64,000 nucleotides of DNA, taken from NCBI GenBank assembly GCA_045599825.1, contig JAZRWR010000113.1, positions 3,938 to 67,937 on the forward strand, read 5' to 3'. This stretch comes from Bianqueaceae bacterium (lineage in GTDB: Bacteria; Bacillota; Clostridia; Lachnospirales; Bianqueaceae). The translations under genes were made by a program, and so were the position numbers. The notes beneath the pieces were generated by a model. The model did no database searches, was not told the origin of the DNA, and was given only the letters and a program-made list of their open reading frames with translations. How positions within the stretch are numbered: position 1 is the stretch's first letter; every line of letters begins with the position of its first letter. Below, one piece after another: positions 1,802 through 47,376 of this stretch.

Positions 1802-4768
<2,967 letters not shown>

Positions 4769-17548: not shown

Positions 17549-17584
17549 AAAGTGTATTTTTATCTATATCGAGGAGGACAGCGC

Positions 17585-18328
17585 GTGGTCGATATTCACT
17601 GTCACATTTTACCGGCCGTGGACGACGGTTCATCCGCTCTGTCCGAATCACTGGAGATGGCCCGTCTGGCTGCGGCAGGAGGCACGGATACCGTCGTGTG
17701 CACGCCTCACTGCAATGTCCCCTACGAGCTTCGCGGGAACTTCCGCGGGGCCACGCTGAACGGACAGGTGGACATGCTCCGGCAGGCGCTCCGGGAGGCG
17801 GAGATCCCGCTTCAGCTCCTTTGCGGGGCCGAAATCATGACTACGCCCGAGCTTCCGGAGCTTATCCGCGCGCATCGCCTGCAGACCCTGGCCGACAGCC
17901 GCTACCTCCTGATGGAATTCTTTTTCGATGAGCCGCTCGGCTTTATCGACCGCATGCTCGGAGAGGTGCTGAACGCAGGCCTGGTGCCGGTCCTTGCGCA
18001 TCCTGAGCGCTACGACGCCGTGCAGGAAATGCCCTCCGTGCTGGGAGACTGGTTCGGCGCCGGCATCATTCTGCAAATCAATAAGGGCTCGGTCCTGGGC
18101 CGTCTCGGCAGCGGTGCCGAAGAGTGCTCCCACTGGATCCTGTCCCACGGTCTTGCCCACGTGCTGGCCAGTGACGCGCATTCGTCGGTCAGCCGTACGC
18201 CGCACATGCGGGAGCTTTCCCGCAGTCTGGAGAAGGAAATAGGCCATCGCTATACAAATATTCTGCTTGAGGAAAACCCGCGCCGTATCATTGAAGACCG
18301 GGACATCCTGCGGGCTGAACAGGAATAA
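17585..18328 (+). CDS. CpsB/YwqE-type PHP-family protein-tyrosine phosphatase
   Basis: VDIHCHILPAVDDGS and CTPH / LAHPERY / LASDAHS metal-binding His blocks are present. GTG 17585 lies 5 nt after GAGGAGG. Confidence 0.85.
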   Translation: MVDIHCHILPAVDDGSSALSESLEMARLAAAGGTDTVVCTPHCNVPYELRGNFRGATLNGQVDMLRQALREAEIPLQLLCGAEIMTTPELPELIRAHRLQTLADSRYLLMEFFFDEPLGFIDRMLGEVLNAGLVPVLAHPERYDAVQEMPSVLGDWFGAGIILQINKGSVLGRLGSGAEECSHWILSHGLAHVLASDAHSSVSRTPHMRELSRSLEKEIGHRYTNILLEENPRRIIEDRDILRAEQE

Positions 18329-18339
18329 GAGGATTTTCT

Positions 18340-19143
18340 ATGCGAACACTGGAAAGAGTAACTATCTTGCTGTTTGTGGTCATGCTCCTGGTTTTTGCGG
18401 GAGTCAAGGCCTACAGCTTCATCCGCATTGACCGTACCGCCCCTGTCTTCCACTGCGATTCCGCTGAGCTCGAGGTGAGCATGAGTGCGGACGAAACAGC
18501 GCTTCTGGCGGGCCTTACCGCCACGGATGACCGCGACGGTGACCTGACGGACCAGATCATGATCAAGGGCATCACGCAGCTCATCACCGACAATACGGCC
18601 AAAATCAGCTATATCGTCTTTGATTCCGCCAACAATATGGCAAGCTATACACGCGTTCTGCGCTATACCGACTACGAAAAGCCGCATTTCAGCCTCTCCG
18701 CGCCGTTGGTATTCCCCCTGGGCTCCAGCATCATCCTGACGGAGCGCCTGGGAGCCTCCGACCTGCGCGAGGGCGATCTGACCGGCAATATCTGCATCGT
18801 TTCGCAGAATGTCACCAAGAACATCGAGGGCATTTACAGTGTAACCGTGCAGGTCACGAATTCCCTGGGCGATACCGAAACCCTGGCCCTTCCGCTGGTC
18901 ATCTGCAAGGAGGCCTCCTACGGCCAGATGATCACGCTCTCCGATTACCTGATCTACGTGGAGCAGGGGACCGAGCTTCATCCCGAGGATTATCTGCTGG
19001 CGGCCGCCAACCGCTTCGGCCAGCCGATGTCGACCGAGGTCGTGGAGATCGGCGGCAGTGTGGATACCTCCCGCGCCGGTGTGGGCAGCTTTGTCTACAG
19101 CTATGCGGGTTATTCGGTCTATCTGACCGTTGTGGTGAAATAA
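18340..19143 (+). CDS. Membrane-anchored hypothetical protein with Ig-like (DUF5011-type) repeats
   Basis: N-terminal TM helix. LTATDDRDGDLTDQI is typical of bacterial Ig-like surface domains. Confidence 0.45.
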   Translation: MRTLERVTILLFVVMLLVFAGVKAYSFIRIDRTAPVFHCDSAELEVSMSADETALLAGLTATDDRDGDLTDQIMIKGITQLITDNTAKISYIVFDSANNMASYTRVLRYTDYEKPHFSLSAPLVFPLGSSIILTERLGASDLREGDLTGNICIVSQNVTKNIEGIYSVTVQVTNSLGDTETLALPLVICKEASYGQMITLSDYLIYVEQGTELHPEDYLLAAANRFGQPMSTEVVEIGGSVDTSRAGVGSFVYSYAGYSVYLTVVVK

Positions 19144-19152
19144 GGAGGAGAA

Positions 19153-20685
19153 ATGGCAGAAAACAGAAATGTCCGGTTCAGTCTCTCCGATATCGAACCG
19201 CTTTGCGTTGTCAAAAACCTGATTGAAAAATACTGGCTGATCATCCTGGCCTTTTTGATCGGCCTGATGGCCAGCAATCTGCTTCTGACGGCTATGTCGT
19301 CTCAAAGCTACACGAGCACAGCCACCTTTTCGGTAACGGCGCGCAGCTCCTCCAGCGGCACGGGCAGCTACTATGTCAACGCCAATGTCGCCTCCGAGGT
19401 CGTCAGCATCTATTCCGAGGTCTTTTCCAGCCGTCTGATGACGGACGCCATCCATGAAAATCTGGGCAGCGTCAACGGCACGATCTCGACCGCCGTGCTG
19501 GGCAGCACCAATCTGATCCGCGTCAGCGTCAACAGCCGGAACCCCAAGGATACGCTCCTCATCATGCAGTATATCATCGAGCACTACGCCGATGTCTCCG
19601 AATACGTTTCCAACACGGCTGTGCTGAGTCCGCTGTCCACGCCCAACATCAACGTGGTCGCCGAAAAGTCCTATAATATCGGGAAAAGCAGCCTGCTGGC
19701 CGGTATTGCCGGCGCGCTTCTGATGGTCGTTCTTCTGGTATTCCGTCACCTGAACGAGGACACCATCATGACGCCCGAGGGCGCCAAGAACAAGCTGGAC
19801 GCCAAGGTCATTACCAGCGTTCCTCACGAGACGCAGGGAGGCAGCCGCCTCATTACGTCCAGCAGCCAGCGCCGCTCCGAAATGGGCAAGCGCACCAACC
19901 TTCTGATCACCTCGCCTACCACCAGCTTTACCTTTACGGAGGCCATCCACAAGTGCGCCACCCGTTTCGAAAGCGAATATGACGCCGGCAAGCGCGTCTT
20001 CCTTTTCTCGAGCGTGTCCGAATCCGAGGGCAAGTCCACCATGGCCGCTAATGTCGCCCTTTCGCTGGCGATGCGCGGCGTCAAGGTGCTATTCATCGAT
20101 ATGGACCTCCGCCGTCCCGTTCAGACCGAGCTTTTGGGCAAGAAGATCGCCGAGGAGCAGGAGCTTGGCTACATGCTCAACAACGGCTTCACCTCCCGGA
20201 AGATCCTGGAAAACGTCATCCACGACGAAAAGACCGGACTGGACACTCTGCTGTCCGCGCACACCTACAAGAACATGGTGGAGCTGATCTCCTCCCCCGT
20301 GGTATCGCGGCTGATCAAGCGCGCCCGCGGCGAATACAATTATATCATCATCGACTCGGCTCCTCTCGGATACTTCTCCGACAGTGAGCTTCTGTCCGAC
20401 CTTTCCGACGCGTCCGTCCTGGTCGTCCGTCAGGACACTGTTTCGGCCGCGAACATCAACGACGCCATCGATGACCTGCGCGAGGGCAGGGCGGAGTTCC
20501 TGGGCGTGCTGCTGAATGACATGAACAGCTTCTCCGATGTCAGCGCCAATGCCGGCTACGGCTATGGCCGGGGCTACGGTTACGGCAAGTACGGCAAGTA
20601 CGGGAAATACGGCAAGTACGGCAAATACGGCAAGTACGGCAAGTACGACCGCCCGTCCGCTGAAGGAGAGGAGGCGAAGGCATGA
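19153..20685 (+). CDS. Fused Wzz (PCP) transmembrane modulator / BY-family protein-tyrosine autokinase with a (YGK)n tail, paralog 1
   Basis: Two TM helices flank a Wzz-like loop. Walker A SESEGKST, Walker A' VLFIDMDLRRP and Walker B YIIIDSAP are present. C-terminal tail is GYGYGRGYGYGKYGKYGKYGKYGKYGKYGKY. Confidence 0.85.
   Translation: MAENRNVRFSLSDIEPLCVVKNLIEKYWLIILAFLIGLMASNLLLTAMSSQSYTSTATFSVTARSSSSGTGSYYVNANVASEVVSIYSEVFSSRLMTDAIHENLGSVNGTISTAVLGSTNLIRVSVNSRNPKDTLLIMQYIIEHYADVSEYVSNTAVLSPLSTPNINVVAEKSYNIGKSSLLAGIAGALLMVVLLVFRHLNEDTIMTPEGAKNKLDAKVITSVPHETQGGSRLITSSSQRRSEMGKRTNLLITSPTTSFTFTEAIHKCATRFESEYDAGKRVFLFSSVSESEGKSTMAANVALSLAMRGVKVLFIDMDLRRPVQTELLGKKIAEEQELGYMLNNGFTSRKILENVIHDEKTGLDTLLSAHTYKNMVELISSPVVSRLIKRARGEYNYIIIDSAPLGYFSDSELLSDLSDASVLVVRQDTVSAANINDAIDDLREGRAEFLGVLLNDMNSFSDVSANAGYGYGRGYGYGKYGKYGKYGKYGKYGKYGKYDRPSAEGEEAKA
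20554..20646 (+). repeat. In-frame tandem 9-nt repeat (GGCAAGTAC-like) encoding the Tyr cluster of kinase 1
   Basis: ggcaagtac / gggaaatac / ggcaaatac units are repeated about 7 times head to tail. Confidence 0.9.
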
Positions 20686-22286
20686 GCGAAAACTATTCAG
20701 CTGACAGCAAGAAAAGTCCCGACAACCGCGTAGACCTGTTCGCCTTCTGGCGCCGCTTCCGTCCCTTCCTGGTCCGCTTCTGGTACCTTCCGCTGCTTCT
20801 GGCCCTGGTCGGCGCGCTCTTCATGGCCCTGCGCGCCCGCCGCAGCTTCGTCCCGAGATACCGCAGTGAAGCTATTTTCTCCGTTGCGGTCACCGATACC
20901 GACAGCCTGGACGTCTCTACCTACAGCTACTATTACGACAGTGCCGCCGCCAAGCAGGCAACGGCCACCTTCCCCTACATCCTCTCCAGCGACATCATGC
21001 AGGAGCTTCTGAAGGACCGTCTGAATGTGCCCTATCTGAACGGCAGCGTGCAGGCGAAGAGCATCGCCGATACGAACTTTATCGAGCTTTCGGTGACCTC
21101 GACGAACCCGGACGACGCCTACAGCATCCTGCAGGCCGTCATGGAGGTCTATCCGCAGGTCAGCCGCAAGGTCGTCGGCGAAACGCGCTTTACTGTCACG
21201 CAGCCTGCGCATAAATCGACGACGCCCTACAACAGCCTGAGCTGGAAGCGTCCGGCCGTTCTGGGTGCCTTTGCCGGCTTCGTGCTGGGTGTCGGCATTC
21301 TGCTGATTATGACGCTTCTGCGCCGCACAATCCTTTCGGAGGACGACGTCAAGCGCACCTCCAACCTGAACTGCCTCGGCCGCATTACCAACGACACCGA
21401 GAAAAAGCGTACCGAAACCGACGGCGAGGCAGGCATCCTGGTCACGCGTCTGCACACCGACTCGGCCTTCAGCGAATCCCTGCGCGGCTTCCGTCTGAAG
21501 ATCACCCGTGACCTCGGCCCCAAGGAAAAGATCATCATGTTTACCAGCTCCCTGCCCTCCGAGGGCAAGAGCTCTCTGGCGGCCAACACGGCCCTGCTTC
21601 TGGCCGGACACGGCAAGAAGGTGCTGGTGGTCGACGCCGACCTTCGCGGCCCCTCCATCAAGAGCATTCTGGGCATTACGGAGCCTTCCGCCGGCCTCGG
21701 CGAATGGCTGTCCGGCAAGTCCGAGGGGCTGAACTTCCTGCGCTACAAGGAAACCAGTCTGTATGTCATGGGCTCGGGCGAGGCCATCCCCGACCCCACG
21801 CCTATCCTGGTTCATGCCAACATCAACAACCTTTTCCAGCTGCTCCGGACGATGTTCGACTACGTCGTGGTCGACACGCCTCCCTGCACGCTGATGAGCG
21901 ACGCCGCGGCTTTCTGCCCTCTGGTGGACCGCGTCGTCTATGTCATCCGTGAGGATTATGCCTCTGTCTCCCAGGTCTCGGACGGTATCGAGAACCTGTC
22001 CGAGCACGGCGCCAAGCTGGCCGGCTTCGTGCTGAACCGCTGCGGCATCGGCGAGGCCTCCTCGTACTACTACGGCAAGTACGGCTACGGCAAGTACGGC
22101 TACGGCAAGTACGGCTACGGTAAATACGGCTACAGCAAGTACAGCTACGGCAAATACGGCTACGGCCGCTACAGCTACGGCAAGTACGGCTATGCCGGCT
22201 ACGGTTACGGCTACGGAACGTCCGAAGCCGATGAAGCCGAAGAAAACAACGAAAAACAGGAGGAAGCGCCGGATAGCGAGTCCTGA
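20682..22286 (+). CDS. Fused Wzz (PCP) modulator / BY-family protein-tyrosine autokinase with an extended Tyr-Gly-Lys tail, paralog 2
   Basis: ATGA start/stop overlap with paralog 1. Two TM helices. Walker A SLPSEGKSS, Walker A' VLVVDADLRGP and Walker B YVVVDTPP are present. Tail is YYYGKYGYGKYGYGKYGYGKYGYSKYSYGKYGYGRYSYGKYGYAGYGYGYG followed by an acidic end. Confidence 0.85.
   Translation: MSENYSADSKKSPDNRVDLFAFWRRFRPFLVRFWYLPLLLALVGALFMALRARRSFVPRYRSEAIFSVAVTDTDSLDVSTYSYYYDSAAAKQATATFPYILSSDIMQELLKDRLNVPYLNGSVQAKSIADTNFIELSVTSTNPDDAYSILQAVMEVYPQVSRKVVGETRFTVTQPAHKSTTPYNSLSWKRPAVLGAFAGFVLGVGILLIMTLLRRTILSEDDVKRTSNLNCLGRITNDTEKKRTETDGEAGILVTRLHTDSAFSESLRGFRLKITRDLGPKEKIIMFTSSLPSEGKSSLAANTALLLAGHGKKVLVVDADLRGPSIKSILGITEPSAGLGEWLSGKSEGLNFLRYKETSLYVMGSGEAIPDPTPILVHANINNLFQLLRTMFDYVVVDTPPCTLMSDAAAFCPLVDRVVYVIREDYASVSQVSDGIENLSEHGAKLAGFVLNRCGIGEASSYYYGKYGYGKYGYGKYGYGKYGYSKYSYGKYGYGRYSYGKYGYAGYGYGYGTSEADEAEENNEKQEEAPDSES
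22065..22217 (+). repeat. In-frame tandem 15-nt repeat (TACGGCAAGTACGGC-like) encoding the Tyr cluster of kinase 2
   Basis: About 10 near-identical units are visible at 22065-22217. Confidence 0.9.
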
Positions 22287-22313: not shown

Positions 22314-23993
22314 GTGAAGAAAAAGCTCAGTGACATCAAGGAGCTGTGGCAGGAGATTGTCTGGATCTACCGCTACGGAAAGAATTACACGGGCGCCATT
22401 CTGCTTTATGTTCTGCTGGGGCTTCTGGCCACGGCAGTGGGCCTTTTCAGCTCGGTCGTCTCCAAGTACCTGATCGACGCGGTCACGTCCGGAGATGTTT
22501 CCCGCATCAGCCTGATCATTGCGCTCTATGTGGGCTTCGGTGTGACGCGTATCCTGCTCGGGGCGCTGACGAAGCGCTTCCGCGCGCATACCGGCGTGAG
22601 GGCCACCAACGAAATCCGCGAGGACCTTTTCGGCCGTTTCCTGGCCATCGACTGGCAGGCATCCCTGGACTACCATTCCGGAGACCTTTTAAGCCGCATC
22701 AACAGCGATGTCGCCACCGTGGCCGACAGCATCCTCGGCCTGATTCCGAGCCTGATCACCGCGGGCCTGCAGTTTGCGGGCGCCCTTTTGGTGATTCTGA
22801 TCTACGATCCGATGATGGCGCTGTGGGCACTGATTTCAGCCCCTGTCACGGTCCTGTTCTCGCGTCTTTTTCTGACGAAGATGCGCGCCCTCGGCCAGAA
22901 GGTCCGGGAGCGGCAGGCGGATCTGACCGGCTTTTACGAGGAAGCCCTGCAGAATCTGCAGGCTATCAAGGCCTTTCATCTGAACGGCACCATGGAGGAG
23001 CGTCTGGCCGGGCTGCAGCAGCTGTACAAGGATGTCTATCTGGAGAGCGCTGATTTCTCCGTCTGGATGGGCGTTGTCATGTCCGTGCTCGGCTTTGCGA
23101 CCTCGGGCCTCTGCTTTGCCTGGGGCGCGTTCCGCCTGTGGACAGGCTATATTTCCTTTGGCACGATGGTGCTTTTCATCCAGATGGCAGGCACGGTAAC
23201 GAGCGCCTTCAGCTCTTTGGTTTCGATCGTCCCAGGCGCCGTGAGCGCCGCGGTTTCGGCCGGCCGTCTGATGAAAATTCTGGAGCTTCCCGCCGAAAAT
23301 TCCGAGACGGACGAGGAGACAGAGGCCTTTATCGAAAAAGCGTTTACGGCCGGTGCGGGCCTGGTGCTGGAGAACGTCTCTTTTGCGTACCGCGAGGGCA
23401 TTCCGGTGCTGGAGCAGCTGAATCTGACGGCTGAAAACGGTCAGATCATCGGTATTATCGCGGAAAGCGGCGGCGGCAAGACGACACTGATCCGCCTGCT
23501 TCTGGGGCTGGTAAGCCCTGACGGAGGAGAGGCCTTCGTGCTTCTTTCCGACGGGACGAGGAAGCCGCTCAGCCCTGCGCTGCGTCCGCTTTTCTCCTAC
23601 GTGGCCCAGGAAAAGGTCGTCTTTTCCGGCACGGTGGCAGAGAGCCTGCGGCTGGGAAATCCCGCAGCAGGCGATGAAGCTCTGTGGGACGCGCTGGAAC
23701 GAGCCTGCGCTGCCGATTTCGTACGCGCGCTGCCCGAGGGCATCGATACGAAGCTGGGCGAGCGCGGTGCGGGTCTGAGTGAGGGACAGATCCAGCGTTT
23801 GGCCATCGCCCGGGCCATCCTGAGTCCCGCGCCCCTGCTCCTTCTGGACGAGGCTACCTCGGCCCTTGATTTTGAGACCGAAAAAAAGGTGATCCACGGT
23901 CTGCTGGCCGGCGAGGAGCGCCGACGCACGGTCATCGCAACAACGCACCGCCCGACGGTGCTCGAATACTGCGATGCCGTCATTCAATTATAA
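22314..23993 (+). CDS. ABC exporter, fused permease/ATPase (type I exporter, 559 aa)
   Basis: Six-TM N-terminal domain. P-loop AESGGGKTT, signature LSEGQIQRLAIARA and Walker B LLLLDEATSALD are present. GTG start follows AAAGGAGG. Confidence 0.85.
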   Translation: MKKKLSDIKELWQEIVWIYRYGKNYTGAILLYVLLGLLATAVGLFSSVVSKYLIDAVTSGDVSRISLIIALYVGFGVTRILLGALTKRFRAHTGVRATNEIREDLFGRFLAIDWQASLDYHSGDLLSRINSDVATVADSILGLIPSLITAGLQFAGALLVILIYDPMMALWALISAPVTVLFSRLFLTKMRALGQKVRERQADLTGFYEEALQNLQAIKAFHLNGTMEERLAGLQQLYKDVYLESADFSVWMGVVMSVLGFATSGLCFAWGAFRLWTGYISFGTMVLFIQMAGTVTSAFSSLVSIVPGAVSAAVSAGRLMKILELPAENSETDEETEAFIEKAFTAGAGLVLENVSFAYREGIPVLEQLNLTAENGQIIGIIAESGGGKTTLIRLLLGLVSPDGGEAFVLLSDGTRKPLSPALRPLFSYVAQEKVVFSGTVAESLRLGNPAAGDEALWDALERACAADFVRALPEGIDTKLGERGAGLSEGQIQRLAIARAILSPAPLLLLDEATSALDFETEKKVIHGLLAGEERRRTVIATTHRPTVLEYCDAVIQL

Positions 23994-24459
23994 TATGATG
24001 ATGCACGAAGTATCTGCCGCGGCTGAAGTGCTGCCGCGTATGAAAAAGGCGCTGTCGGAGTTCGGCCTGTGCCGCCTGGTCGTCACCGGAGGCAGCATGC
24101 TGCCCTTCCTGCACTCCAGGCGCGACGCGGTCCTGCTGGAGCCCTTTGACGGTACGGCAAGAGTCGGCGACATCCTGTTCTATCAGCGCAGCGAAAATTT
24201 CTGCGTGCTGCACCGGGTGCATCGCATGGGCCGGGACGGCCTTATGTACTGCACCGGCGATATGCAAAGTCAGCTGGAGCCTGTGCGGCCTGAGCAGGTG
24301 ATCGCACGCGTGCAGGCTGTCGAGGTCAAGGGCAGACGCACGCCCGTAACGGCCTTTTCCTACCGCCTGCGAAGCGCGCTGTGGTATCCCACCCGGCCGA
24401 TTCGGCCGCTGATGGCGCGCGTCTATCTGTCCCTTCGGCAAAAAAACGTTAACAAGTAA
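23974..24459 (+). CDS. S26 (SipW/ER-type or SodX-like) signal-peptidase-family protease, apparently soluble
   Basis: GGSMLPFL matches the G.SM.P catalytic Ser block. GDILFY and VLHRVHR match the S26B GDI...HRV His block. No N-terminal TM helix is visible. The start overlaps the ABC gene end by 20 nt. Confidence 0.6.
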   Translation: MPSFNYNMMMHEVSAAAEVLPRMKKALSEFGLCRLVVTGGSMLPFLHSRRDAVLLEPFDGTARVGDILFYQRSENFCVLHRVHRMGRDGLMYCTGDMQSQLEPVRPEQVIARVQAVEVKGRRTPVTAFSYRLRSALWYPTRPIRPLMARVYLSLRQKNVNK

Positions 24460-24470
24460 GAGGAAGCAGC

Positions 24471-25187
24471 ATGAAAAAAGAAACGAGTCCGCTTTTTAAA
24501 GTCCTGCACGGGGTTTTTTTACTGCTCGTTGCGGTAGTGGCGGGTCTCGCGGTGCTTCGTGCCTGCCAGCTTGGCTGGTTTGAGAGAAAACAGCCCGCTG
24601 AAAGCGATATCGCTTCCGAAAGCGAGGAGAGCAAGGCTTTGCTGGAGCTGGACGGCAAGTTCAGGCTCATCAGCGTGATGACGCTCTCCGGCTCCTTCTA
24701 CGAGGACGCAAGCAACGACCCGGTCGAAAAGGTGCTGACTGTTCTGCTGCAATACAGCGGCGAAAAGGCCGTCCGCTCGGCTGAGCTCGTGCTGAACGGC
24801 TGCTATCATTTTGTGCTGAGTGCGGTGCTGCCCGGCGACTCGATTTATGTGCTTGAGCAGAACCGAAGCGTTTATCCGCAGGGAATGACCATTGCCTCGG
24901 CAGAGCTTTGCTCCGTGGAATACTATGAGGAGCTGCCCGGCCTGATGGAGGAGCAGCTTTCGATTCTCGTGAACGGTAAGAGCCTGACGGTGCAGAACCG
25001 AAGCGACAGTGAGATGTTTCCCGGCGGCACGCTGGTGTATAAAAATGAATACGAGGGCTGTCTGCTGGGCGGAATCAGCTACACGCTGGAGCTCCCGCCG
25101 CTCATCCCGGGCCAGAGCGCAGAGCTTACGGCGGAGCGCTGCCGCGGCAGCGGCTCGCGGCTGATGTTCATTTTGCCCGCCGACTGA
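24471..25187 (+). CDS. Hypothetical N-terminally membrane-anchored protein (238 aa)
   Basis: One TM helix (VFLLLVAVVAGLAVL) followed by a beta-rich ectodomain. No family recognised. Confidence 0.45.
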   Translation: MKKETSPLFKVLHGVFLLLVAVVAGLAVLRACQLGWFERKQPAESDIASESEESKALLELDGKFRLISVMTLSGSFYEDASNDPVEKVLTVLLQYSGEKAVRSAELVLNGCYHFVLSAVLPGDSIYVLEQNRSVYPQGMTIASAELCSVEYYEELPGLMEEQLSILVNGKSLTVQNRSDSEMFPGGTLVYKNEYEGCLLGGISYTLELPPLIPGQSAELTAERCRGSGSRLMFILPAD

Positions 25188-25199
25188 GAAACTTGTCCC

Positions 25200-25228
25200 T
25201 TGTGAAAATCACGCAAAACCTGTATAAT
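25200..25228 (+). promoter_or_regulatory. Putative internal sigma-70-type promoter upstream of the radical SAM gene
   Basis: TTGTGA (25200-25205), a 17-nt spacer, then TATAAT (25223-25228), 25 nt before ATG 25254. Confidence 0.5.
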
Positions 25229-25253
25229 ATATTCCAAGACCGAGGACGCGACT

Positions 25254-26396
25254 ATGCTTGACAACCGACCCGCCGGATATGTGCCCCGTTCGGAGCCCAT
25301 GATTTCCAGCCATCTGAACGCGCTGGGCATTCGCAAGGGCCTGCCTGTTTCCGGAAACTTTGAGCTGACTGCCCGCTGCAATTTCGACTGCCGCATGTGC
25401 TATGTGCACCAGAACGGCGATCTGCGCCGGCGGGAGCTCTCCGCCGATACCTGGCTGGGTCTCGCATCCGACGCGCGCGACCTGGGGATGATGTTCCTGC
25501 TGCTGACCGGCGGCGAGCCCTTCATCCGTGAGGACTTTCCTTATATCTATGAGGAGCTCGTCAGGATGGGGCTGGTCGTCTCCGTCAACACCAACGCCTC
25601 TCTTTACAGCGAAGAGCTGCGCGAGCTGTTTCTGAAATATCCGCCTTCACGCCTGAACGTCACGCTGTACGGTGCGTCCGAGGAGACCTACCGCGCGCTC
25701 TGCCGCAGCGCTTCGTACGAAAAGGTCGTCTCCAATCTTCGTTCGATGAAGGCCGACGGCCTGCAGGTGCGTCTAAACGTGTCTCTCACGCCCTGGAACG
25801 TGGCCGACATGGAGGGCATCCATCAGATCGCCGCCGATATCGGTCTGAACGCCAAGGGTTCGGCCTATATGTATCCCCCGGTGCGCCTCACGGAAAGCTA
25901 CGGCGAAAACGCGGCGCGCTTCAGCCCGGAGGAGGCCGGCCGTGTTTTCGCGGCCTGGAACCGCCTGAACGAAGGCGATGAGCGCTTCCTCGCGAAGGCA
26001 GAGGCAATGGGACGCTGGGACAACTGTGAGGAGATTCTGGCGGACAGCCCCGAAAACGGCGTCCGCTGCCGCGCCGGCCGCAGCAGCTTCTGGCTGACCT
26101 GGGAGGGCAAAATGCTTCCCTGCGGCACCATGGATATCGAGACCTCCGACGCTTTGAGCCTGGGCTTTGCCAAGGCCTGGGAGGAGGTGCGTGCGCGGAC
26201 GGCAGCCATTCGCCTGCCCGCCGAGTGCGCATCCTGCAGTCACCGTCAGAACTGCAGTCTGTGCGCGTCCATCTGTCGCTGCGAAAGCGGAGGCTTTGAC
26301 AAACGGCCCGAATATCTTTGCAAAATGGAGAAAAGCCGCTATGAGGAAACTCAGAAGCTGGCCCAACTGATTAAGGAGGAGAACCATGCAGATTAA
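25254..26396 (+). CDS. Radical SAM enzyme with a C-terminal SPASM domain
   Basis: CNFDCRMC (CX3CX2C) cluster and GGEPF are present. C-terminal Cys-rich region is CRAGRSSF...LPCG...CASCSHRQNCSLCASICRC. Confidence 0.85.
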   Translation: MLDNRPAGYVPRSEPMISSHLNALGIRKGLPVSGNFELTARCNFDCRMCYVHQNGDLRRRELSADTWLGLASDARDLGMMFLLLTGGEPFIREDFPYIYEELVRMGLVVSVNTNASLYSEELRELFLKYPPSRLNVTLYGASEETYRALCRSASYEKVVSNLRSMKADGLQVRLNVSLTPWNVADMEGIHQIAADIGLNAKGSAYMYPPVRLTESYGENAARFSPEEAGRVFAAWNRLNEGDERFLAKAEAMGRWDNCEEILADSPENGVRCRAGRSSFWLTWEGKMLPCGTMDIETSDALSLGFAKAWEEVRARTAAIRLPAECASCSHRQNCSLCASICRCESGGFDKRPEYLCKMEKSRYEETQKLAQLIKEENHAD

Positions 26397-26649
26397 AGGT
26401 GAATTTATCAAACGAGACATTGCGGGAGAAAGCTTTCTGGTGCCTGTCGGCGAAAGCCAGCACCGCTTCCCCGGACTGATTGCCTTGAACGAAGTGGCTT
26501 CCTTTGTCTGGGACCGGCTTCCTTCCTGTGAGACGGAGGCGCAGATCGTTGACGCCCTTCTGGACGAGTACGAGGTCGAGCGCTGGGAAGCGGAAGCCGA
26601 CGTGGCGGAGCTCATCGCCAAAATGACGGAAATGGGCCTGATTGAATAA
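26386..26649 (+). CDS. PqqD-family protein (RiPP recognition element-like), 87 aa
   Basis: Pattern present: FLVPVG...LIALNEVASFVWDRL....TEAQIVDALLDEYEV....AEADVAELIAKMTEMGLI. The start overlaps the rSAM stop by 11 nt. Confidence 0.75.
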   Translation: MQIKGEFIKRDIAGESFLVPVGESQHRFPGLIALNEVASFVWDRLPSCETEAQIVDALLDEYEVERWEAEADVAELIAKMTEMGLIE

Positions 26650-26661
26650 AGAATATGCACG

Positions 26662-26694
26662 AGGCCGGGGAGCTTTCCTCGGCCTTTATTGTTT
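26662..26694 (+). terminator. Rho-independent terminator after the rSAM-PqqD pair
   Basis: AGGCCGGGGA (26662-26671) pairs with TCCTCGGCCT (26676-85) with one G-U pair, followed by TTTATTGTTT. Confidence 0.6.
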
Positions 26695-26754
26695 GATGAG
26701 GCCGGGCACAGCGCCGGAGAAAGTTCATTTTTGGAATATTTTTATTCGTTTTTG

Positions 26755-26783
26755 TTGACTGAGAGCTGAAACTGAGATATACT
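26755..26783 (+). promoter_or_regulatory. Putative sigma-70-type promoter for the Lgt-like/vWA unit
   Basis: TTGACT (26755-26760), a 17-nt spacer, then TATACT (26778-26783). Confidence 0.5.
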
Positions 26784-26867
26784 GTATTGGTTATTGTCAG
26801 GCAGGAGGCACCGATATCATGAATACGCTGCCGGCTGTCTGTTAGTTCTCTCTTTTTTCTAAAAGCT

Positions 26868-27509
26868 ATGAGTTTATTGATTTATTTAGGCCTCGGGGCC
26901 GCCATGATGTATCTGGTCATGTTTTTTCTGCAGGACCGGTACAAGATCAAGCCAGGAAAGCTTCTCATGTTTGATCTCCTGCTTACCGTCTGCGGTGTCG
27001 CCGGTGTCAAGCTGATGTATTTTGTTGAAAACGGAAGTTTCGCGGGGCTTTCCTTCTTCGGAGCAGTGCTGATTACGCCGCTTCTTCTGATTCCCGTTGC
27101 GCTTCTTCTGAAGGAACGTGTTCCCGCCGTCCTGGATCTTTCCGCCCCGGCCATCTGCGCTATGCTTGGCGTCATGAAGATTCAGTGTGTGGTAGAAGGC
27201 TGCTGCCGGGGCCGCATGATGGACCTCTTCGGTCTGCTTTTGCCGTTCCGCTTTCCCAGTCAGTTGGTTGAGCTCGCGAATGCCTGCGTGCTGGTTGTGG
27301 TTTTGGTGTGTCTGGCGCGCAAAAAGGCCAATTACGGCCATATTTATCCGCTGTTTCTGGTTCTCTACGGAATCACGCGCTTTGTCTGGAACCTTTTCCG
27401 TGAGGCAGAGCCTTTCATCGGGCCTTTGCCTATCGGTAATTTCTGGTCTTTGATTTCTCTGATTATCGGCCTTATCTGGCTTTTCGCCCTGAAAAAGAAG
27501 AAGGCGTGA
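26868..27509 (+). CDS. Prolipoprotein diacylglyceryl transferase (Lgt) family paralog, short form (213 aa)
   Basis: Multi-TM protein. KIQCVVEGCCRGR resembles the RIGCFL.GCC.G block of short Lgt-family proteins. FPSQLVE resembles the Lgt P(T/S)QLYE motif. YGITRFVWNLFRE resembles Y...RF..EF.R. Confidence 0.5.
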   Translation: MSLLIYLGLGAAMMYLVMFFLQDRYKIKPGKLLMFDLLLTVCGVAGVKLMYFVENGSFAGLSFFGAVLITPLLLIPVALLLKERVPAVLDLSAPAICAMLGVMKIQCVVEGCCRGRMMDLFGLLLPFRFPSQLVELANACVLVVVLVCLARKKANYGHIYPLFLVLYGITRFVWNLFREAEPFIGPLPIGNFWSLISLIIGLIWLFALKKKKA

Positions 27510-27603
27510 TTTTTTGCATTTCGGTTTGTATGCACTAACGAATGTGCATGTTCTAACTGATATTAGTACTTTGGTAAAATACACTGTTGAAAGGTAGTAA
27601 GTT

Positions 27604-30510
27604 ATGAAGCAGTTAAAGAAGACCTTCGCTTTGTTCCTTTCCATGCTTCTTTGCCTGTCTGCCGTTCCCGCCGTCGGCGCTTTTGCCGATGAGGGCGGCT
27701 CCGACGAGGAAAGCGGTCTGATTTTGGACAAGTGGTACACTCCAAAAGCCGATTCCGGTGAAGGCATCCTGACGCTCGAAACCTACGTCAAGGGTACGGT
27801 CGTTCATACGACTACGGTAGTCAGCCAGCCGCTTGACATTGTTCTGGTGCTGGATGTATCCGGCTCCATGGATGATTCCCTTTCCGCCAGCGGCGCCAGC
27901 GGATATTCGGTCAGGACGGGTGTCTCTTATAACAACGCGAACCAGCGGAATTTCTATTTCCGCGAAGGAAACACCTATTACCGCGTTTATGCGCACAGAA
28001 CGGGCTTCGGTCTGGATGCTTATTATTACCTGAGCTTTACCAAGGACGGAACAGAATACTTCCTGAAGGGCGATTCGTATACGGAGGATATTTCTTCCGC
28101 TTGGGTCAGCAGCGGCAGCACAGCGATTTACACGGAAACGCTTTACTATTCGCTGGGGTACTCTCCCTCTAAGCTGGATGTATTAAAGAGCGCCGTAGCC
28201 GGCCTGATCGATACAGTCTATGCCGATGCCATTGCCAATGAGGTTGATCACCGTATCAGCATCGTCACCTTCGCTTCTTCGGCAAATACGGTTGACGAGC
28301 TGGTATCCGTAAGCGAAAACTATGACAGGCTGATAAAGGATACGGGCGCTCTGAGAGCAAACGGTGCTACGGCGGCCGACTACGGTCTTCAATCTGCCGA
28401 TACCGTTATGCAGGACGCCCGTTCCGACAGCAACAGGGTCGTCATCTTCTTTACTGACGGTGAGCCGAATCATAACAGCGGCTTCGACGGATCGGTTGCG
28501 ACCAAGGCAATCACGGCAGCTAAGAGCCTGAAGGATGACGGAGCCAAGGTCTATTCCGTCGGCGTATATGATGCGAGCTCCGGTGGAGGCGGCTGCGGAG
28601 GCGGCTGTGACGATGAGGCCGACCTTACCACTGTCATGAACTACATGCACGCCATCTCCTCCAACTATCCCGCTGCGACTTCTTATACGAGCAGTACCAT
28701 GGGCACCGGCAGCGATCTGGGTTATTCGCTGATGGCCGGTAATGCAGGCGAGCTTTCCGGTATTTTTGAGACAATTACCAAGGAGGCGGTCGAGGGTTCG
28801 GCCCGCATTCAGCTTGATGCCGATGCGGTCGTGCTGGATAAAATTTCCGACTATTTTGAGCTGCCTGAAGGCATTGAAGAAAAAGACATTAAGGTTTATT
28901 ATGCCGATTATCTCGGCAACGACAGCTGGAGTGAGAAGCGGGCTTTCACGGCTGCTGCATTGGAGCTTGATGTGAAGAATAAGCAGGTCCGCGTTTCCAA
29001 CTTTGACTTTGCTTACTACTTCGTTCCCGAGGACGGCGCGGCCAAAAACAGCAACGGAATTAACGGCCGCAAGCTGATTATTGAAATCCCCATTGTCGAT
29101 AACGGCACCGGCTTCGGAGATGTGCCTACCAATACGGGCGATTCCGGTGTTTATCAGAATGAAGAGAAGGTCGAAAACGGCGAGAGCGTTGATCGCTATC
29201 CCATCCCTGAAACGACCTTCCCGAGCTTCACTGTTATTCATTCCTCCGACAGTTCTGCGGATAAGATTCGTCTTTCCTCCGTCGGTACTGAGGGCTTTGA
29301 TCTTTCTGCCATCGTGAAGGAGGGCCATCTTTACGGTGGCTACTATCACTACGAAAACAGCACGGTAGGGGCTCCCTATACCTCGAGCGGTCTGACGCTT
29401 CAGCCTGCGGACGGTGCGGTATACTTCCTGCAGGAGGTGCCCAAGACCTATCTGCGTCCGGCCACTCTGTCCCTTTCCTCCAAGGGTGTTAAGTATACCT
29501 GGATGCTGACCGCTATTGACAGCCTGAACTACAAGCTGGCCGGCTTTGATGTGGCCGGTAAGGATATCAGTCTGACCGTACCGGAAGCGGCGGCGGAGCA
29601 GGACAGCTTCTGCAAGAGCAGCGCGGACGAGATGGACGCGGTCTGCGAGACAATCCATGTGGAAATGGTCTACGGAAAGACGTACGATTACGATGTTCTG
29701 ATGGTTTCCGGCAACCTCGACGGTTACATAGTCTGCCTGCGCTTCAGCAATCCGGAGAGCTATATCGATAACGGAAGCTTTGATGTTCATCCCTATTTTG
29801 TCACACCCGATAATGTCAAGGTTACCGGCGATACGGTCCGTACGTTGACCTACACTTCAGCCAATCTGACTGAGACTGCGTCCGGAACGGGTGCGAAGAA
29901 CCCTGTTTCCTCGGATGTGACGGATTTTGACGAATATGTCTCCGCTGCGCCCTATGCGCCTCTCCGGCTGATGAGCTTCGTGCCTCTGCGTGCGGTTCCC
30001 TCCAAGTCTCTTGAGGTTGTAGAGCCTGCGCCTCAGGCTCCCGTCGAAGAACCCGAGGCCGTTGAGGAGCCTGCAGGAGAGCCTGAGGTCGCTGAGGAAC
30101 CTGCGGAGGAATCTGCGGTCGTCGAAGAGCCGGCGGAAGAAACCGCGGAAATCGCTCCCTCGGATGCGTCTGATTATGAAGCCCCTGAGCAGGTCATTCC
30201 GGAGGAAGAGCCCGCTGAGGAGCCTGAGCAGAAGGAAAGAGTTACGCCGGTTATTCCGGATCCCGTCGTTGTAGAGCCCGAGGAAGAGCCTGCTCTTATT
30301 GAAAAGCCTGCCGAAGACGCGGCTGAAGCGCCCGTTGATGAAGCGGAGGATGTGCCGGCTGAGGAGCCTGCGGATACGGAGCCGGAAGCTGAGCACGCGG
30401 ATGAGGCTTCGACCGAAGAGGCCGTTATTATGCCTGCGATCAGCTGGCTGCTTCGCGTTCTGACTGCGGTCAGCACCTTCCTGGCCCGTCTGTTCGGTTT
30501 TGTGAAATAA
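27604..30510 (+). CDS. Secreted/cell-surface von Willebrand factor A domain protein with a Pro/Glu-rich stalk and a C-terminal hydrophobic anchor (968 aa)
   Basis: Signal peptide MKQLKKTFALFLSMLLCLSAVPAVGAFA. vWA MIDAS block VLVLDVSGSMDD, then IVTFASSA, GATAADYG, VVIFFTDGEPN. The C-terminus is an EEPAE-type repeat region followed by ISWLLRVLTAVSTFLARLFGFVK. No LPXTG motif. Confidence 0.8.
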   Translation: MKQLKKTFALFLSMLLCLSAVPAVGAFADEGGSDEESGLILDKWYTPKADSGEGILTLETYVKGTVVHTTTVVSQPLDIVLVLDVSGSMDDSLSASGASGYSVRTGVSYNNANQRNFYFREGNTYYRVYAHRTGFGLDAYYYLSFTKDGTEYFLKGDSYTEDISSAWVSSGSTAIYTETLYYSLGYSPSKLDVLKSAVAGLIDTVYADAIANEVDHRISIVTFASSANTVDELVSVSENYDRLIKDTGALRANGATAADYGLQSADTVMQDARSDSNRVVIFFTDGEPNHNSGFDGSVATKAITAAKSLKDDGAKVYSVGVYDASSGGGGCGGGCDDEADLTTVMNYMHAISSNYPAATSYTSSTMGTGSDLGYSLMAGNAGELSGIFETITKEAVEGSARIQLDADAVVLDKISDYFELPEGIEEKDIKVYYADYLGNDSWSEKRAFTAAALELDVKNKQVRVSNFDFAYYFVPEDGAAKNSNGINGRKLIIEIPIVDNGTGFGDVPTNTGDSGVYQNEEKVENGESVDRYPIPETTFPSFTVIHSSDSSADKIRLSSVGTEGFDLSAIVKEGHLYGGYYHYENSTVGAPYTSSGLTLQPADGAVYFLQEVPKTYLRPATLSLSSKGVKYTWMLTAIDSLNYKLAGFDVAGKDISLTVPEAAAEQDSFCKSSADEMDAVCETIHVEMVYGKTYDYDVLMVSGNLDGYIVCLRFSNPESYIDNGSFDVHPYFVTPDNVKVTGDTVRTLTYTSANLTETASGTGAKNPVSSDVTDFDEYVSAAPYAPLRLMSFVPLRAVPSKSLEVVEPAPQAPVEEPEAVEEPAGEPEVAEEPAEESAVVEEPAEETAEIAPSDASDYEAPEQVIPEEEPAEEPEQKERVTPVIPDPVVVEPEEEPALIEKPAEDAAEAPVDEAEDVPAEEPADTEPEAEHADEASTEEAVIMPAISWLLRVLTAVSTFLARLFGFVK
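30010..30420 (+). repeat. Low-complexity Pro/Glu/Ala-rich repeat region (EEPAE-like units) inside the vWA gene
   Basis: VEEPEAVEEPAGEPEVAEEPAEESAVVEEPAEETAE...EEEPAEEPE...EEPADTEPE. Confidence 0.8.
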
Positions 30511-30525
30511 GGAGGAAGAAAGATT

Positions 30526-30690
30526 ATGAATCCTTTTCTTTATACTGTCTATGACGGAAACGGAAATGAAATCGGCATGGTCAGTATGCCCTGGTCCCAG
30601 ATCGATTTTACGCCTGCGGCCGGGATTATTAACTTCGACGGTCATACCTACCGTCAGCTTGATGACAACACGCTGCAATTGCTGCGATAA
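30526..30690 (+). CDS. Unlisted small ORF, 54 aa (MNPFLYTVYDGNGNEIGMVSMPWSQIDFTPAAGIINFDGHTYRQLDDNTLQLLR)
   Basis: Hand-translated, below the 60-aa cutoff of the ORF track. GGAGG at 30511-30515 lies 10 nt upstream of ATG 30526. TAA at 30688-30690. A GC-rich hairpin plus T-tract follows at about 30703-30735. Confidence 0.45.
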   Translation: MNPFLYTVYDGNGNEIGMVSMPWSQIDFTPAAGIINFDGHTYRQLDDNTLQLLR

Positions 30691-30746
30691 CAGTAATAAT
30701 TTGGCGGTACCGCAATCGGCGCCGCCTTTTCTCTTGGAGATACAGA

Positions 30747-31490
30747 ATGCATTATATTACGTTTCCGTTGGCCGGACACAGGCTGGCCTACGCAACGGAC
30801 GACGATAAGTGCGCATCCTATTTGGAGGCGTACCGGAGGCTCTGTGAGGAATGCCGGGCATCCGCTCAGAACGCGGTAAGCGAAACGCTTTTCATGCTAA
30901 GCGAGGAGGAGTGCCGGAACGCGTCCGCGCACTACCCCGCGTGCTCGAGCCGGACCGAGGTTGAAATGGGGGAACTGCTTTTTCAAACCTCCTCGTATCT
31001 TTTGCGCCATGAGGCCTGTCTGTTCCACGGAGTCGCGTTTCTGTGGCGCGGCAGGGCGTGGATCTTTACCGGTCCGAGCGGCGCAGGAAAGAGCACGCAG
31101 TATATGCAGTGGAAACTGCGCTATCCGGAGGAGCTCGTGATCATCAACGGCGACAAGCCGGTCATCAGCCGCGGCGCAAACGGGAAGTTTTTCGCGTCCG
31201 GCTCTCCCTGGAACGGGAAAGAACATTTCGGGCAGGCGCTTGAGGCGCCCCTGGGCGGTGTGATATGGCTGGATCAGTCGAAGGAGAACCGCCTGGAGTC
31301 CATGAGCCCGGAGCAGGCGGCGCCGCGTCTGTTTCTGCAGTTTCTGCTGCGTCCCGCAGATGAGGCGGAGCTTGCGCGGCTGATTGCCCTCGAGGAGGCA
31401 TTGCTTGCGCAGGTGCCGGTGTGGCATTTAATGAATTTGGGCGACCGCGCGTCGGCTGAGCTTCTGCACGACGCTTTGGCGGAAGCATAA
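30747..31490 (+). CDS. HPr-kinase-related P-loop protein (HprK C-terminal-domain-like)
   Basis: LFHGVAFLWRGRAWIFTGPSGAGKSTQY matches the H(A/G)..........G.SG.GKS block of HprK-related kinases found in peptide-modification cassettes. No HPr-kinase N-terminal domain. Confidence 0.6.
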   Translation: MHYITFPLAGHRLAYATDDDKCASYLEAYRRLCEECRASAQNAVSETLFMLSEEECRNASAHYPACSSRTEVEMGELLFQTSSYLLRHEACLFHGVAFLWRGRAWIFTGPSGAGKSTQYMQWKLRYPEELVIINGDKPVISRGANGKFFASGSPWNGKEHFGQALEAPLGGVIWLDQSKENRLESMSPEQAAPRLFLQFLLRPADEAELARLIALEEALLAQVPVWHLMNLGDRASAELLHDALAEA

Positions 31491-31511
31491 GAGAAAGATG
31501 GGTTTACCGAT

Positions 31512-31802
31512 ATGATGAAATATCAGCTGAGGGACGGTGTCGTTCTGGCGGAGCTGTGTCACCAGCCGATGCTGGTCGCGACCGGCCCTGCGCTCGACCA
31601 CTGCGCCTATATGAGTCTGATGAATGACGACGCCGCATTTTATCTGAGACTGCTGGCAAATCCGCAGACGGTCTCGCAGATGGCGGCCGCTGCTGCGGTG
31701 CAATACGAGCAGAGCGAGGAAACCATGACAGCCATTGTGGAGCAGTTCATGGATTTCCTGGTCCAAAGAGGCTATGTGATACAGGTGAACGGCGATGAGT
31801 GA
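31512..31802 (+). CDS. PqqD-family protein (second copy, 96 aa)
   Basis: Pattern present: ...GVVLAEL..QPMLVA....LNDDAAFYLRLL...QTVSQMAAA.A.QYE.SEETMTAIVEQFMDFLVQRGYV. Confidence 0.6.
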   Translation: MMKYQLRDGVVLAELCHQPMLVATGPALDHCAYMSLMNDDAAFYLRLLANPQTVSQMAAAAAVQYEQSEETMTAIVEQFMDFLVQRGYVIQVNGDE

Positions 31803-34026: not shown

Positions 34027-34168
34027 AACAATCCCTTTCTTTCTGAAAGCGCTGCCCTTATTATAGCGCAAAAGCCTGTTTTGGCAAGGTTTTTCGGGCG
34101 GAGGAGGACAACCGCAGGGCTGGGGCAGCTTCTCGTGCAGACGCGAGGGTTTTGAAGCGTTTGATGAA

Positions 34169-34195
34169 CAAAAAAACATCCACAGACTGTGGATG
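34169..34195 (-). terminator. Terminator of the tRNA operon
   Basis: CATCCAC / GTGGATG hairpin at 34177-34195. On the minus strand it is followed by the T-run complementary to the A-run at 34169-34176. Confidence 0.6.
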
Positions 34196-34632: not shown

Positions 34633-34661
34633 ATATTAGCACAGTACCTTTGCAGTGTCAA
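34633..34661 (-). promoter_or_regulatory. Near-consensus sigma-70 promoter of the tRNA operon
   Basis: On the minus strand: TTGACA (34661-34656), a 17-nt spacer, then TAATAT (34638-34633). The -35 element overlaps the stop codon of the upstream GTPase-NYN gene. Confidence 0.6.
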
Positions 34662-44896: not shown

Positions 44897-44940
44897 AGAG
44901 AAAAAGACGAGCAAATCTATCATAACGGGAGGAGACGGCA

Positions 44941-45507: not shown

Positions 45508-45586
45508 TTATTAACCTGAGAAATCAATGGCTGACGGTGGGGGCAACCCCTGTCAGCCATTTTATGCATTTAAGGGAGCTTTTCGC

Positions 45587-47365: not shown

Positions 47366-47376
47366 AAGAGGTTTGT

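Follow-up and report, generated by a model that had tools for sequence, protein, structure and literature searches.

A radical SAM/PqqD maturation cassette with no adjacent precursor gene in a Bianqueaceae genome, and its mostly precursor-bearing relatives in gut Clostridia

Introduction

What do the enzymes of a peptide-maturation cassette act on when no precursor gene lies beside them? This question is raised by five genes at positions 22314–26649 of a 64 000 nt stretch (here, the window) of contig JAZRWR010000113.1 from the Bianqueaceae bacterium assembly GCA_045599825.1. They encode an ABC exporter, an S26-like peptidase, a 238-aa membrane-anchored protein (mem238), a radical S-adenosylmethionine (rSAM) enzyme and a stand-alone PqqD-family protein (PqqD87). 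The original prediction, made from the sequence of the window, described a toolkit for a ribosomally synthesised and post-translationally modified peptide (RiPP) and offered three candidates for the substrate: a peptide encoded elsewhere, possibly by a 54-codon open reading frame (ORF) at 30526; mem238 itself; or a larger protein of the island, such as one with a vWA domain. Here, the cassette was compared with a set of about 110 related loci, including three genomic contexts and 80 loci from GTDB species representatives. The reading that we favour, with confidence falling just short of even, is that a peptide-maturation module widespread in gut Clostridia is present here as a derived but functional five-gene copy, from which the cis-encoded precursor has been lost.

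The five-gene cassette

The five genes, all on the forward strand, are tightly packed or overlapping as first described. The ABC gene (22314–23993, GTG start) overlaps the gene for the S26-like peptidase (23974–24459) by 20 nt, which is followed after 11 nt by the mem238 gene (24471–25187) and, after a further 66 nt, by the rSAM gene (25254–26396). The PqqD87 gene (26386–26649) overlaps the end of the rSAM gene by 11 nt. An intrinsic-terminator-like hairpin at 26661–26686 on the same strand (11 bp stem with 7 GC pairs, T-rich tail) closes the unit, again in agreement with the original prediction, and a promoter-like site is found 3′ of it at 26755–26783.

The rSAM enzyme matched Radical_SAM (PF04055) at 2e-20 and has no N-terminal RiPP recognition element (RRE) domain. 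The CX3CX2C cluster motif (C42-x3-C46-x2-C49) and Cys-rich SPASM tail (C325-x2-C328-x5-C334-x2-C337-x3-C341, plus C272, C290 and C356) seen earlier are present, and these cysteines were invariant among 20 homologues. SkfB was the nearest relative of solved structure (2.5e-17), and the structure of the anaerobic sulfatase-maturating enzyme (anSME) matched at only 1e-3. None of the curated peptide-maturase models (NCBIfam StsB, WgkB, PqqE, MftC and ScmE/F) was passed, with scores of 37–66 bits against cut-offs of 265–725. The top NCBIfam matches were to the rSAM core of the cofactor enzymes MoaA, AhbD and NirJ, all far under the cut-offs (MoaA, 79.7 versus 325; AhbD, 77.3 versus 500). On these scores, identification as an anSME or a cofactor enzyme was rejected, and the enzyme joined no non-peptide family. 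PqqD87, the 87-aa protein, exceeded the gathering score of PF05402 (5e-16), and its best NCBIfam matches were the lasso PqqD models.

The S26-like protein has the Ser (GGSMLP) and His (HRV) boxes and lacks an N-terminal hydrophobic or transmembrane (TM) segment, as had been noted. Across 13 members of its family the GxSMxP Ser, HR(V/I) His and GD motifs were invariant, and the invariant residues (S41, H80 and G95-D96) align with SEC11; against solved structures, the family profile found SEC11C (2e-5) and SEC11A (7e-5). Scores against the curated models TIGR02228 (26.7 versus 51.85) and SipW (15.7 versus 190) were both under the cut-off. From its sequence the protein is a putative leader peptidase. 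The gene may instead start at an ATG at 23995, which would give a protein of 154 aa; the 161-aa form is absent from the protein collection, and the orthologue in the closest relative, L086, was called shorter. The ABC exporter is a half-transporter, with a TM domain and a nucleotide-binding domain (Pfam ABC_membrane, PF00664, and ABC_tran, PF00005), generic ABCB-type matches and no C39 peptidase domain.

An rSAM enzyme with a SPASM domain, a discrete PqqD-like RRE and, by homology only, a leader peptidase and an exporter fit the RiPP toolkit reading. The remaining part of an rSAM-dependent RiPP cluster, a precursor gene within it, is missing from the window and present in 59 of 71 related loci.

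A precursor family in related loci

A homologue search with the rSAM enzyme returned 3570 matches, unnamed in every source, and 554 relatives were found among GTDB species representatives. The source of the family is gut and rumen Clostridia; hosts were mostly Oscillospiraceae, Acutalibacteraceae, Faecousia, Lachnospiraceae and unclassified Clostridia metagenome-assembled genomes from human and animal guts. Clustering of the neighbouring ORFs produced a six-gene core, with little else recurrent. In the canonical order, this core consists of genes for a giant surface protein (48 loci, median 1826 aa), a small protein named PRE here, a homologue of mem238, an HPr kinase-like protein of about 285 aa (ScmC-like), the rSAM enzyme and a PqqD protein of 85–89 aa. 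A gene for a nucleotidyltransferase, NTP_transf_5, follows that of PqqD in about nine canonical loci. Some genomes contain two modules (L001, and L049 with L074).

PRE is about 80 aa long with the consensus MKKxYxKPxIxFExFxLSxNIAxGC...C...C...GxCYHVPxxxxNxFxS, and its gene sits just upstream of that of the mem238 homologue. It was found in 59 of the 71 non-redundant loci that had at least 2.3 kb of DNA upstream of the rSAM gene. Exactly four Cys were present in 48 of these 59 non-redundant sequences and a C-terminal Ser in all of them, and no Pfam or NCBIfam model matched. The N-terminal K-x-Y-x-K-P-x-(I/L) motif resembles the lasso and ranthipeptide leaders that are bound by PqqD-like recognition elements. 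The conserved NIAxG-C junction would fit the small -3/-1 rule of signal-peptidase-type enzymes. The Pfam model ScmC (PF27840) matched the kinase-like proteins of the relatives, and by analogy with lasso peptides the canonical HPr kinase-like protein probably phosphorylates the invariant C-terminal Ser of PRE, with NTP_transf_5, where present, probably extending the phosphate.

An amphipathic aromatic tail, approximately (D/G)W(L/I)xx(I/L)F(G/S)(R/K)WF-COOH, forms the C-terminus of about 40 of the 58 giant proteins whose genes lie upstream of PRE, and is often preceded by an acidic Pro/Glu/Thr-rich linker (e.g. L026, 2735–8131, and L070, 83–7669). This tail may be an undescribed anchoring or sorting signal.

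A full-text literature search, with most subscription journals outside its scope, found no description of this system. The PRE-bearing module is a widespread, apparently undescribed peptide-maturation system of gut Clostridia, found next to giant surface-protein genes.

Loss of the precursor gene in the lineage of the window

When the window was examined for a precursor of this type, none was found. A hidden Markov model (HMM) built from the 59 PRE sequences detected nothing in the six-frame translation of the whole 64 kb (best E = 7), which extends the earlier observation that no precursor gene lies next to the rSAM gene. No ORF in the window carries a K-x-Y-x-x-P-x-L leader, and the regular expression (K/R)-x-(Y/F)-x-x-P-x-(L/I/V) found two ORFs, neither of them credible. 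In tblastn searches of the window with the precursors of four relatives and canonical ScmC proteins, only mem238 and p247, an HPr kinase-like protein described below, were matched. Around the cassette there were no pseudogene remnants of PRE or ScmC. Between 22 and 33 kb, a strong Shine-Dalgarno sequence preceded a single small intergenic ORF, the one at 30526 (orf54), which is Cys-free. Because 59 of the 71 related loci carry PRE upstream of the mem238 homologue, the missing precursor reflects a lineage-specific loss and not a hidden gene.

The orthologous rSAM, mem and PqqD genes are present in the window in the canonical order. In the canonical slots, the S26-like gene abuts the mem238 gene, the 66 nt between mem238 and rSAM contain no ScmC-like gene, and no giant surface protein is encoded immediately upstream of the cassette. 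The sole HPr kinase-like gene of the window is that of p247, a distant paralogue located 4.3 kb downstream.

The closest relative was L086, with an rSAM enzyme 73% identical to that of the window. The five genes are syntenic there, in the same order (ABC, S26, mem, rSAM, PqqD), and an aminotransferase gene lies directly 3′ of the cassette. The next-closest rSAM enzymes (63–65% identity) were all from canonical loci, and canonical rSAMs were 51–59% identical in BLAST comparisons. In the nearest canonical loci, PRE is encoded at 7936–8184 (L118), 2811–3065 (L119) and 636–890 (L006). A neighbour-joining tree grouped the window with L086 and nested this pair among the canonical members, which, with the gene order common to the two, points to a single rearrangement in their common ancestor. 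In this ancestor PRE and ScmC were evidently lost from their usual place, and the ABC and S26 genes came to abut mem.

All five cassette genes are under purifying selection. The dN/dS values against L086 were 0.07 (ABC), 0.40 (S26), 0.35 (mem), 0.17 (rSAM) and 0.13 (PqqD), with dS of approximately 1–1.5. The window rSAM retains 71 of 71 family-invariant residues, and PqqD87, which is 41–47% identical to the PqqD proteins of canonical loci, retains most of the family-conserved residues, including the LVPxG strand. This suggests that both still handle the same kind of substrate and leader. Since all five genes are under purifying selection, the most likely substrate is a precursor encoded elsewhere. 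Action in trans is plausible, as approximately 17% of related loci likewise have no adjacent PRE and some genomes contain two modules.

The membrane protein, peptidase and exporter

Profile searches with mem238 found no match in Pfam, NCBIfam or the PDB sequences, and a word-indexed homologue search returned only the protein itself. Homologues, which for the canonical mem proteins share 28–29% identity with mem238, were located between PRE and the kinase gene in 54–61 loci. All members of the family have an N-terminal TM or signal-anchor helix or a lipobox, preceded by basic residues, so that the conserved domain of about 170 aa is extracytoplasmic. A single-sequence AlphaFold2 (AF2) model (pLDDT 39) was informative for the TM helix only. 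The proposal that mem238 is the substrate was rejected, because the family has no conserved Cys, co-occurs with PRE and has its domain outside the cell; it is a component of the module, and not the substrate.

Within 10 kb of the canonical loci, S26 genes were found in 5–6 and ABC genes in 8–11. A scan of metagenomes with the p247 family turned up further loci containing these genes. In L102 and L103 the order was PRE, kinase, mem, rSAM, NTP_transf_5, S26 and ABC, and in L099 it was ABC, PqqD, rSAM, two short precursors, kinase and S26. Several further loci contained kinase, PqqD and S26 genes with or without ABC and NTP_transf_5. This fixed association means that the ABC and S26 genes belong to the HPr kinase-like/PqqD/rSAM toolkit.

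The two precursors in L099 (6036–6347) are in tandem, short (48 and 42 aa) and Cys-rich, with a leader MKxYVxPxLxCVELR; both share the MKxYVxPxL portion and the C-terminal Ser. They sit between the rSAM/PqqD pair and the HPr kinase-like and S26-like genes, in a compact version of the toolkit.

A second module downstream

A second set of genes (module 2) occupies 27604–33126 on the forward strand. It encodes a secreted vWA surface protein of 968 aa (27604–30510), orf54 (30526–30690), the 247-aa ScmC-like P-loop protein p247 (30747–31490), a second PqqD/RRE protein and partner of p247, PqqD96 (31512–31802), and an NTP_transf_5 nucleotidyltransferase, NTP443 (31795–33126; PF14907 at 4e-37). The same arrangement of a large surface protein, a small ORF (57–71 aa), a p247-like protein, a PqqD of about 95 aa and NTP_transf_5 was found in L087 (4717–13818), L090 (7290–10530) and L091 (543–7537), with NTP_transf_5 syntenic in L087 and L091. 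It sometimes continues with a lipoprotein and an ABC gene, and outside the window neither rSAM nor mem is part of it.

Only about 16 close homologues of p247 were found. A profile search against PDB sequences returned only P-loops, and the relationship to HPr kinase/phosphorylase (HPrK/P) was revealed by a fold search, in which the AF2 model (pLDDT 93.8) had the HPrK/P structures 1kkl, 1kkm and 1knx as best Foldseek matches (6e-6 to 3e-5). The Walker A sequence is GPSGAGKST, and the P-loop GPSGxGK(S/T)T is conserved. According to the model, p247 has the HPrK/P catalytic-domain fold, and kinase activity is predicted. It was matched by the Pfam ScmC model and is 25–30% identical to the canonical ScmC-like proteins. 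PqqD96 is above the gathering score of PF05402 (1.4e-7), so both small proteins originally assigned to PqqD pass the Pfam model. It is 30–36% identical to the PqqD proteins of the module-2 loci and divergent from the PRE-binding family.

The counterparts of orf54 in the same position in L087 and L090–L095 are 57–71 aa long. These small ORFs are hypervariable, with no convincing mutual alignment, and those adjoining the p247 subfamily mostly have no C-terminal Ser. An AGGAGG lies 10 nt upstream of orf54, whose translation is free of Cys, lacks a YxxPxL leader and does not end in Ser. A HMMER search of 1.8 billion representatives found only large repeat proteins (Ig, cadherin and RHS-like), the matches being compositional; with no true homologues among them, membership of a conserved family was rejected. 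As module 2 works without an rSAM elsewhere, and its block is of lower GC content and absent from L086 (below), orf54 is most plausibly a client of p247, PqqD96 and NTP443 and not of the rSAM enzyme. The earlier idea of a substrate encoded elsewhere is therefore the favoured one, but orf54, put forward as its gene, belongs to the slot of a separate, rSAM-free module.

The vWA protein has a VWA Pfam match, a Sec signal peptide, a PE-rich linker and a C-terminal amphipathic tail (30436–30507). An HMM of the ...LFGRWF tails of the canonical giants matched this tail at E = 2.6, which is not statistically significant, and the protein is unrelated to those giants save for low-complexity sequence. 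Residues 457–807 have homologous counterparts in the large proteins of L087, L090 and L091, and the module-2 large proteins have a common domain with PY(F/V)VTPDGxKVTG. After the matched VWA domain, at residues ~330–345 (~28590–28640), there is a Gly/Cys insert, SSGGGGCGGGCDDEAD. As the vWA protein is exported by Sec and absent from L086, it is unlikely to be the direct substrate that was suggested, although large surface proteins are a constant genomic partner of the rSAM family.

A paralogue of Lgt (prolipoprotein diacylglyceryl transferase; 26868–27509, forward strand, PF01790 at 1e-17) is the first gene of a block of lower GC content; a homologue of Lgt is also found upstream of the giant protein in L049. 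GC content fell to 0.53 within 26000–30000, coinciding with the Lgt and vWA genes, versus about 0.60 in the flanks, and the block at 26868–33126 is absent from L086. Together, these suggest a separate insertion of the block.

Flanking genes

Upstream of the cassette, forward-strand genes identified by Pfam encode a CpsB phosphatase (17552–18328), an Ig-like membrane protein (18340–19143) and two Wzz/BY-kinase fusions (19153–20685 and 20682–22286). Only 28 nt separate this block (17552–22286) from the ABC gene, and it is probably co-transcribed with the cassette. Ig-like and Wzz genes also adjoin the cassette in L004, L010, L049 and L081, and about 6 of 85 loci adjoin exopolysaccharide (EPS) genes. 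Both fusions have unusually long C-terminal Tyr-Gly-Lys repeat, (YGK)n, tails, e.g. YGKYGKYGKYGKYGKYGKY, and no glycosyltransferase genes are found 3′ of the tandem pair within the window.

Beyond module 2 are a class IV aminotransferase gene, assigned by family (33190–34179, reverse strand), and, at 34658–37252 on the reverse strand, a gene for an 864-aa fusion of an EF-G/Tet(M)-like translational GTPase (GTP_EFTU, EFG_III, EFG_IV and EFG_C) to a C-terminal YacP-like NYN nuclease domain. A gene for the lipoprotein intramolecular transacylase Lit (40145–40852) lies 13 kb downstream of the Lgt paralogue. A standard division/cell-wall (dcw) cluster, including MraW, PBP, MurE-like, MraY, MurD and FtsW, at 43961–54605 places the island in the chromosome.

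Proposed pathway and alternative explanations

The pathway proposed here is inferred as regards where the precursor is encoded, what the chemistry is, where the leader is cut and in which sequence the steps take place. It starts from a precursor of the PRE type, about 80 aa long and with an MKKxYxKPxI leader, a four-Cys core, a conserved CYHxP motif and a C-terminal Ser, which would be encoded outside the window. PqqD87 would bind the leader and present the peptide to the rSAM/SPASM enzyme, which would install cross-links, most probably thioethers derived from Cys. Removal of the leader in the cytoplasm, at ...NIAxG/C, would fall to the soluble Ser/His S26-like peptidase, and the ABC half-transporter would export the product. 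Outside the cell, the product would meet the membrane-tethered mem238, which would act on or with it.

Several points weigh against this reading. No precursor was seen for this genome, of which 64 kb is visible, and L086 is known from a 5.3-kb contig alone. The canonical kinase gene is absent from its usual place, and mem238 and its L086 orthologue do not have the nearly invariant Q102 and H223, which could mean that the function has changed. In most canonical loci, neither an ABC nor an S26 gene lies within 10 kb, so that export of the product is a putative step for the rSAM family as a whole. For the chemistry of the cross-links, the conserved Cys and the SPASM domain are the only indications.

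The rSAM cassette and module 2 might instead form one composite system, in which both sets of enzymes act on orf54 as a replacement for PRE and share the ABC and S26-like proteins. In favour of this arrangement, orf54, with its strong ribosome-binding site, occupies the place of PRE, after a large surface-protein gene and before an HPr kinase-like gene, and p247 is the only such kinase-like protein in the window. The window ABC protein is 38% identical to that of the module-2 locus L087, NTP_transf_5 also follows PqqD in some canonical loci, and the vWA protein has a linker and tail at its C-terminus similar to those of the canonical giants. Nevertheless, we consider a composite system unlikely. 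Module 2 occurs elsewhere with neither rSAM nor mem; in L086 the cassette is under purifying selection with an aminotransferase gene, and not module 2, directly downstream; and the lower GC content of the block suggests that it was inserted separately. Furthermore, orf54 lacks the Cys, the leader and the C-terminal Ser of PRE, and PqqD87 keeps the residues of the PRE-binding family from which PqqD96 has diverged.

Modification of a full-length protein of the island (vWA, mem238 or a capsule-regulation protein) before export, in the manner of anSME or QhpD, has a low probability. In nearly all relatives the module comes after a gene for a large surface protein, co-transcription of the cassette with the Wzz/BY-kinase genes is probable and the vWA protein has the unusual GGGGCGGGC insert, but the relatives have a dedicated small precursor with an RRE-type leader, the rSAM enzyme is only distantly matched by anSME, and mem238 and the vWA protein are poor candidates for the reasons already given. 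Lower again is the probability that no peptide is modified and that the rSAM and PqqD proteins were recruited to a capsule or EPS operon for modification of a cofactor or sugar. The contiguity with the CpsB, Ig-like and Wzz/BY-kinase genes, the recurrence of such regulatory genes beside the module in L004, L010, L049 and L081, and the top rSAM-core matches to MoaA, AhbD and NirJ, though far under their cut-offs, would accord with it; PqqD/RRE proteins are peptide chaperones, however, the cassette includes a leader-type peptidase and an exporter, the orthologous enzymes lie beside a precursor-like peptide in 59 of 71 loci, and few loci adjoin EPS genes. Least probable of all is a decaying relic that was left without a substrate when the precursor and kinase genes were deleted. 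PRE and ScmC are indeed missing and mem238 has departed from two nearly invariant residues, but all five reading frames are intact, the catalytic and cluster residues are all retained, and dN/dS is 0.07–0.40 at saturating dS in two lineages with a common rearrangement. On these grounds a relic was rejected.

A bolder reading, in which we place little confidence, is that the rSAM family has no diffusible product and is a dedicated partner system for giant surface proteins. A small protein of some 56 aa, cross-linked by the rSAM enzyme, would carry a phosphate on its C-terminal Ser and in some cases a sugar; once exported it would, with mem, anchor, cap or otherwise mature the adhesin-like giants with ...LFGRWF tails. 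On this view, the lineage of the window would have an enzyme hub that acts in trans, is fused to the EPS regulatory operon and serves precursor/giant pairs encoded elsewhere. Such a partner system may be linked to capsule or EPS assembly.

Significance and comparison with known systems

Clostridia from human and animal guts carry the module in numerous genomes at species level, and neither PRE nor the mem protein is covered by a curated family. That the module consistently follows giant surface-protein genes suggests that it has a role at the cell surface of these abundant gut anaerobes. The combination of an rSAM/SPASM enzyme, an HPr kinase-like protein and a precursor with an unvarying C-terminal Ser has a single characterised parallel, the phosphorylation of lasso peptides at the C-terminal Ser. 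In the window, selection maintains the enzymes although no substrate is encoded in cis, and cluster-based genome mining would therefore miss such a cassette or assign it the wrong precursor. The PRE family is easy to recognise and directly searchable in a complete genome.

The thioether RiPP pathways of sactipeptides and ranthipeptides (SkfB, CteB/SCIFF and PapB) are alike in having a CX3CX2C rSAM enzyme with a SPASM auxiliary-cluster domain, RRE-mediated leader recognition and a Cys-containing precursor, here found in the relatives. They differ in that the RRE here is a separate protein and no curated maturase model was passed. PRE is also long, with an invariant C-terminal Ser, the window has no precursor, and the module adds an HPr kinase-like protein, an extracytoplasmic lipoprotein or TM protein and a preceding giant-protein gene. 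SynChlorMet (ScmA–F; TIGR04248–TIGR04251) and HPr-rel-A (TIGR04352/TIGR04353), systems defined only bioinformatically, likewise combine an HPr kinase-related ScmC-like protein, a PqqD-like protein and one or more rSAM/SPASM enzymes. The scores against the SynChlorMet models were well under the cut-offs (ScmE, 65.7/400; ScmD, 20.3/100; ScmC, 15–28/125), and the system described here has one rSAM enzyme and not two, is found in other taxa, and includes an identifiable precursor family and a membrane protein.

The clusters of phosphorylated and phosphoglycosylated lasso peptides (paeninodin and pseudomycoidin) also encode a homologue of HPr kinase, an RRE of the PqqD type, a nucleotidyltransferase and an ABC exporter. 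Their precursor receives a phosphate on its C-terminal Ser from the HPr kinase homologue, and hexose is added to this phosphate by the nucleotidyltransferase (PMC8498205). The C-terminal Ser of all 59 PRE sequences and the lasso PqqD matches of PqqD87 add to the likeness. Here, however, an rSAM enzyme is present instead, the small ORFs neighbouring the p247 subfamily mostly do not end in Ser, and neither a lasso cyclase (Asn-synthetase-like) nor a B2 transglutaminase-like protease was found among the proteins encoded at 13–34 kb; a lasso peptide cluster was rejected on this basis.

The Ser, His and GD boxes of the S26-like family are also those of SEC11A/C, the SipW-type peptidases and the soluble nickel superoxide dismutase maturation protease. 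Unlike the ER and SipW signal peptidases, the family has no TM anchor or signal-peptidase-complex context and falls under the TIGR02228 cut-off; a conserved C-terminal W...P.R segment is unique to it.

In maturation of the quinohemoprotein amine dehydrogenase, the gamma subunit QhpC, which is about 80 aa long and contains several Cys, is cross-linked in the cytoplasm by the rSAM/SPASM enzyme QhpD. The leader is then removed by the protease QhpE, and the product is exported by the ABC transporter QhpF and joins larger partners outside the cytoplasm. Compared by description, the present system has no dehydrogenase subunits, its peptidase is S26-like and not subtilisin-like, and the partner, if any, would be the giant surface protein. 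Set beside these systems, the module is an rSAM/RRE peptide-maturation system, and the window holds its precursor-less derivative.

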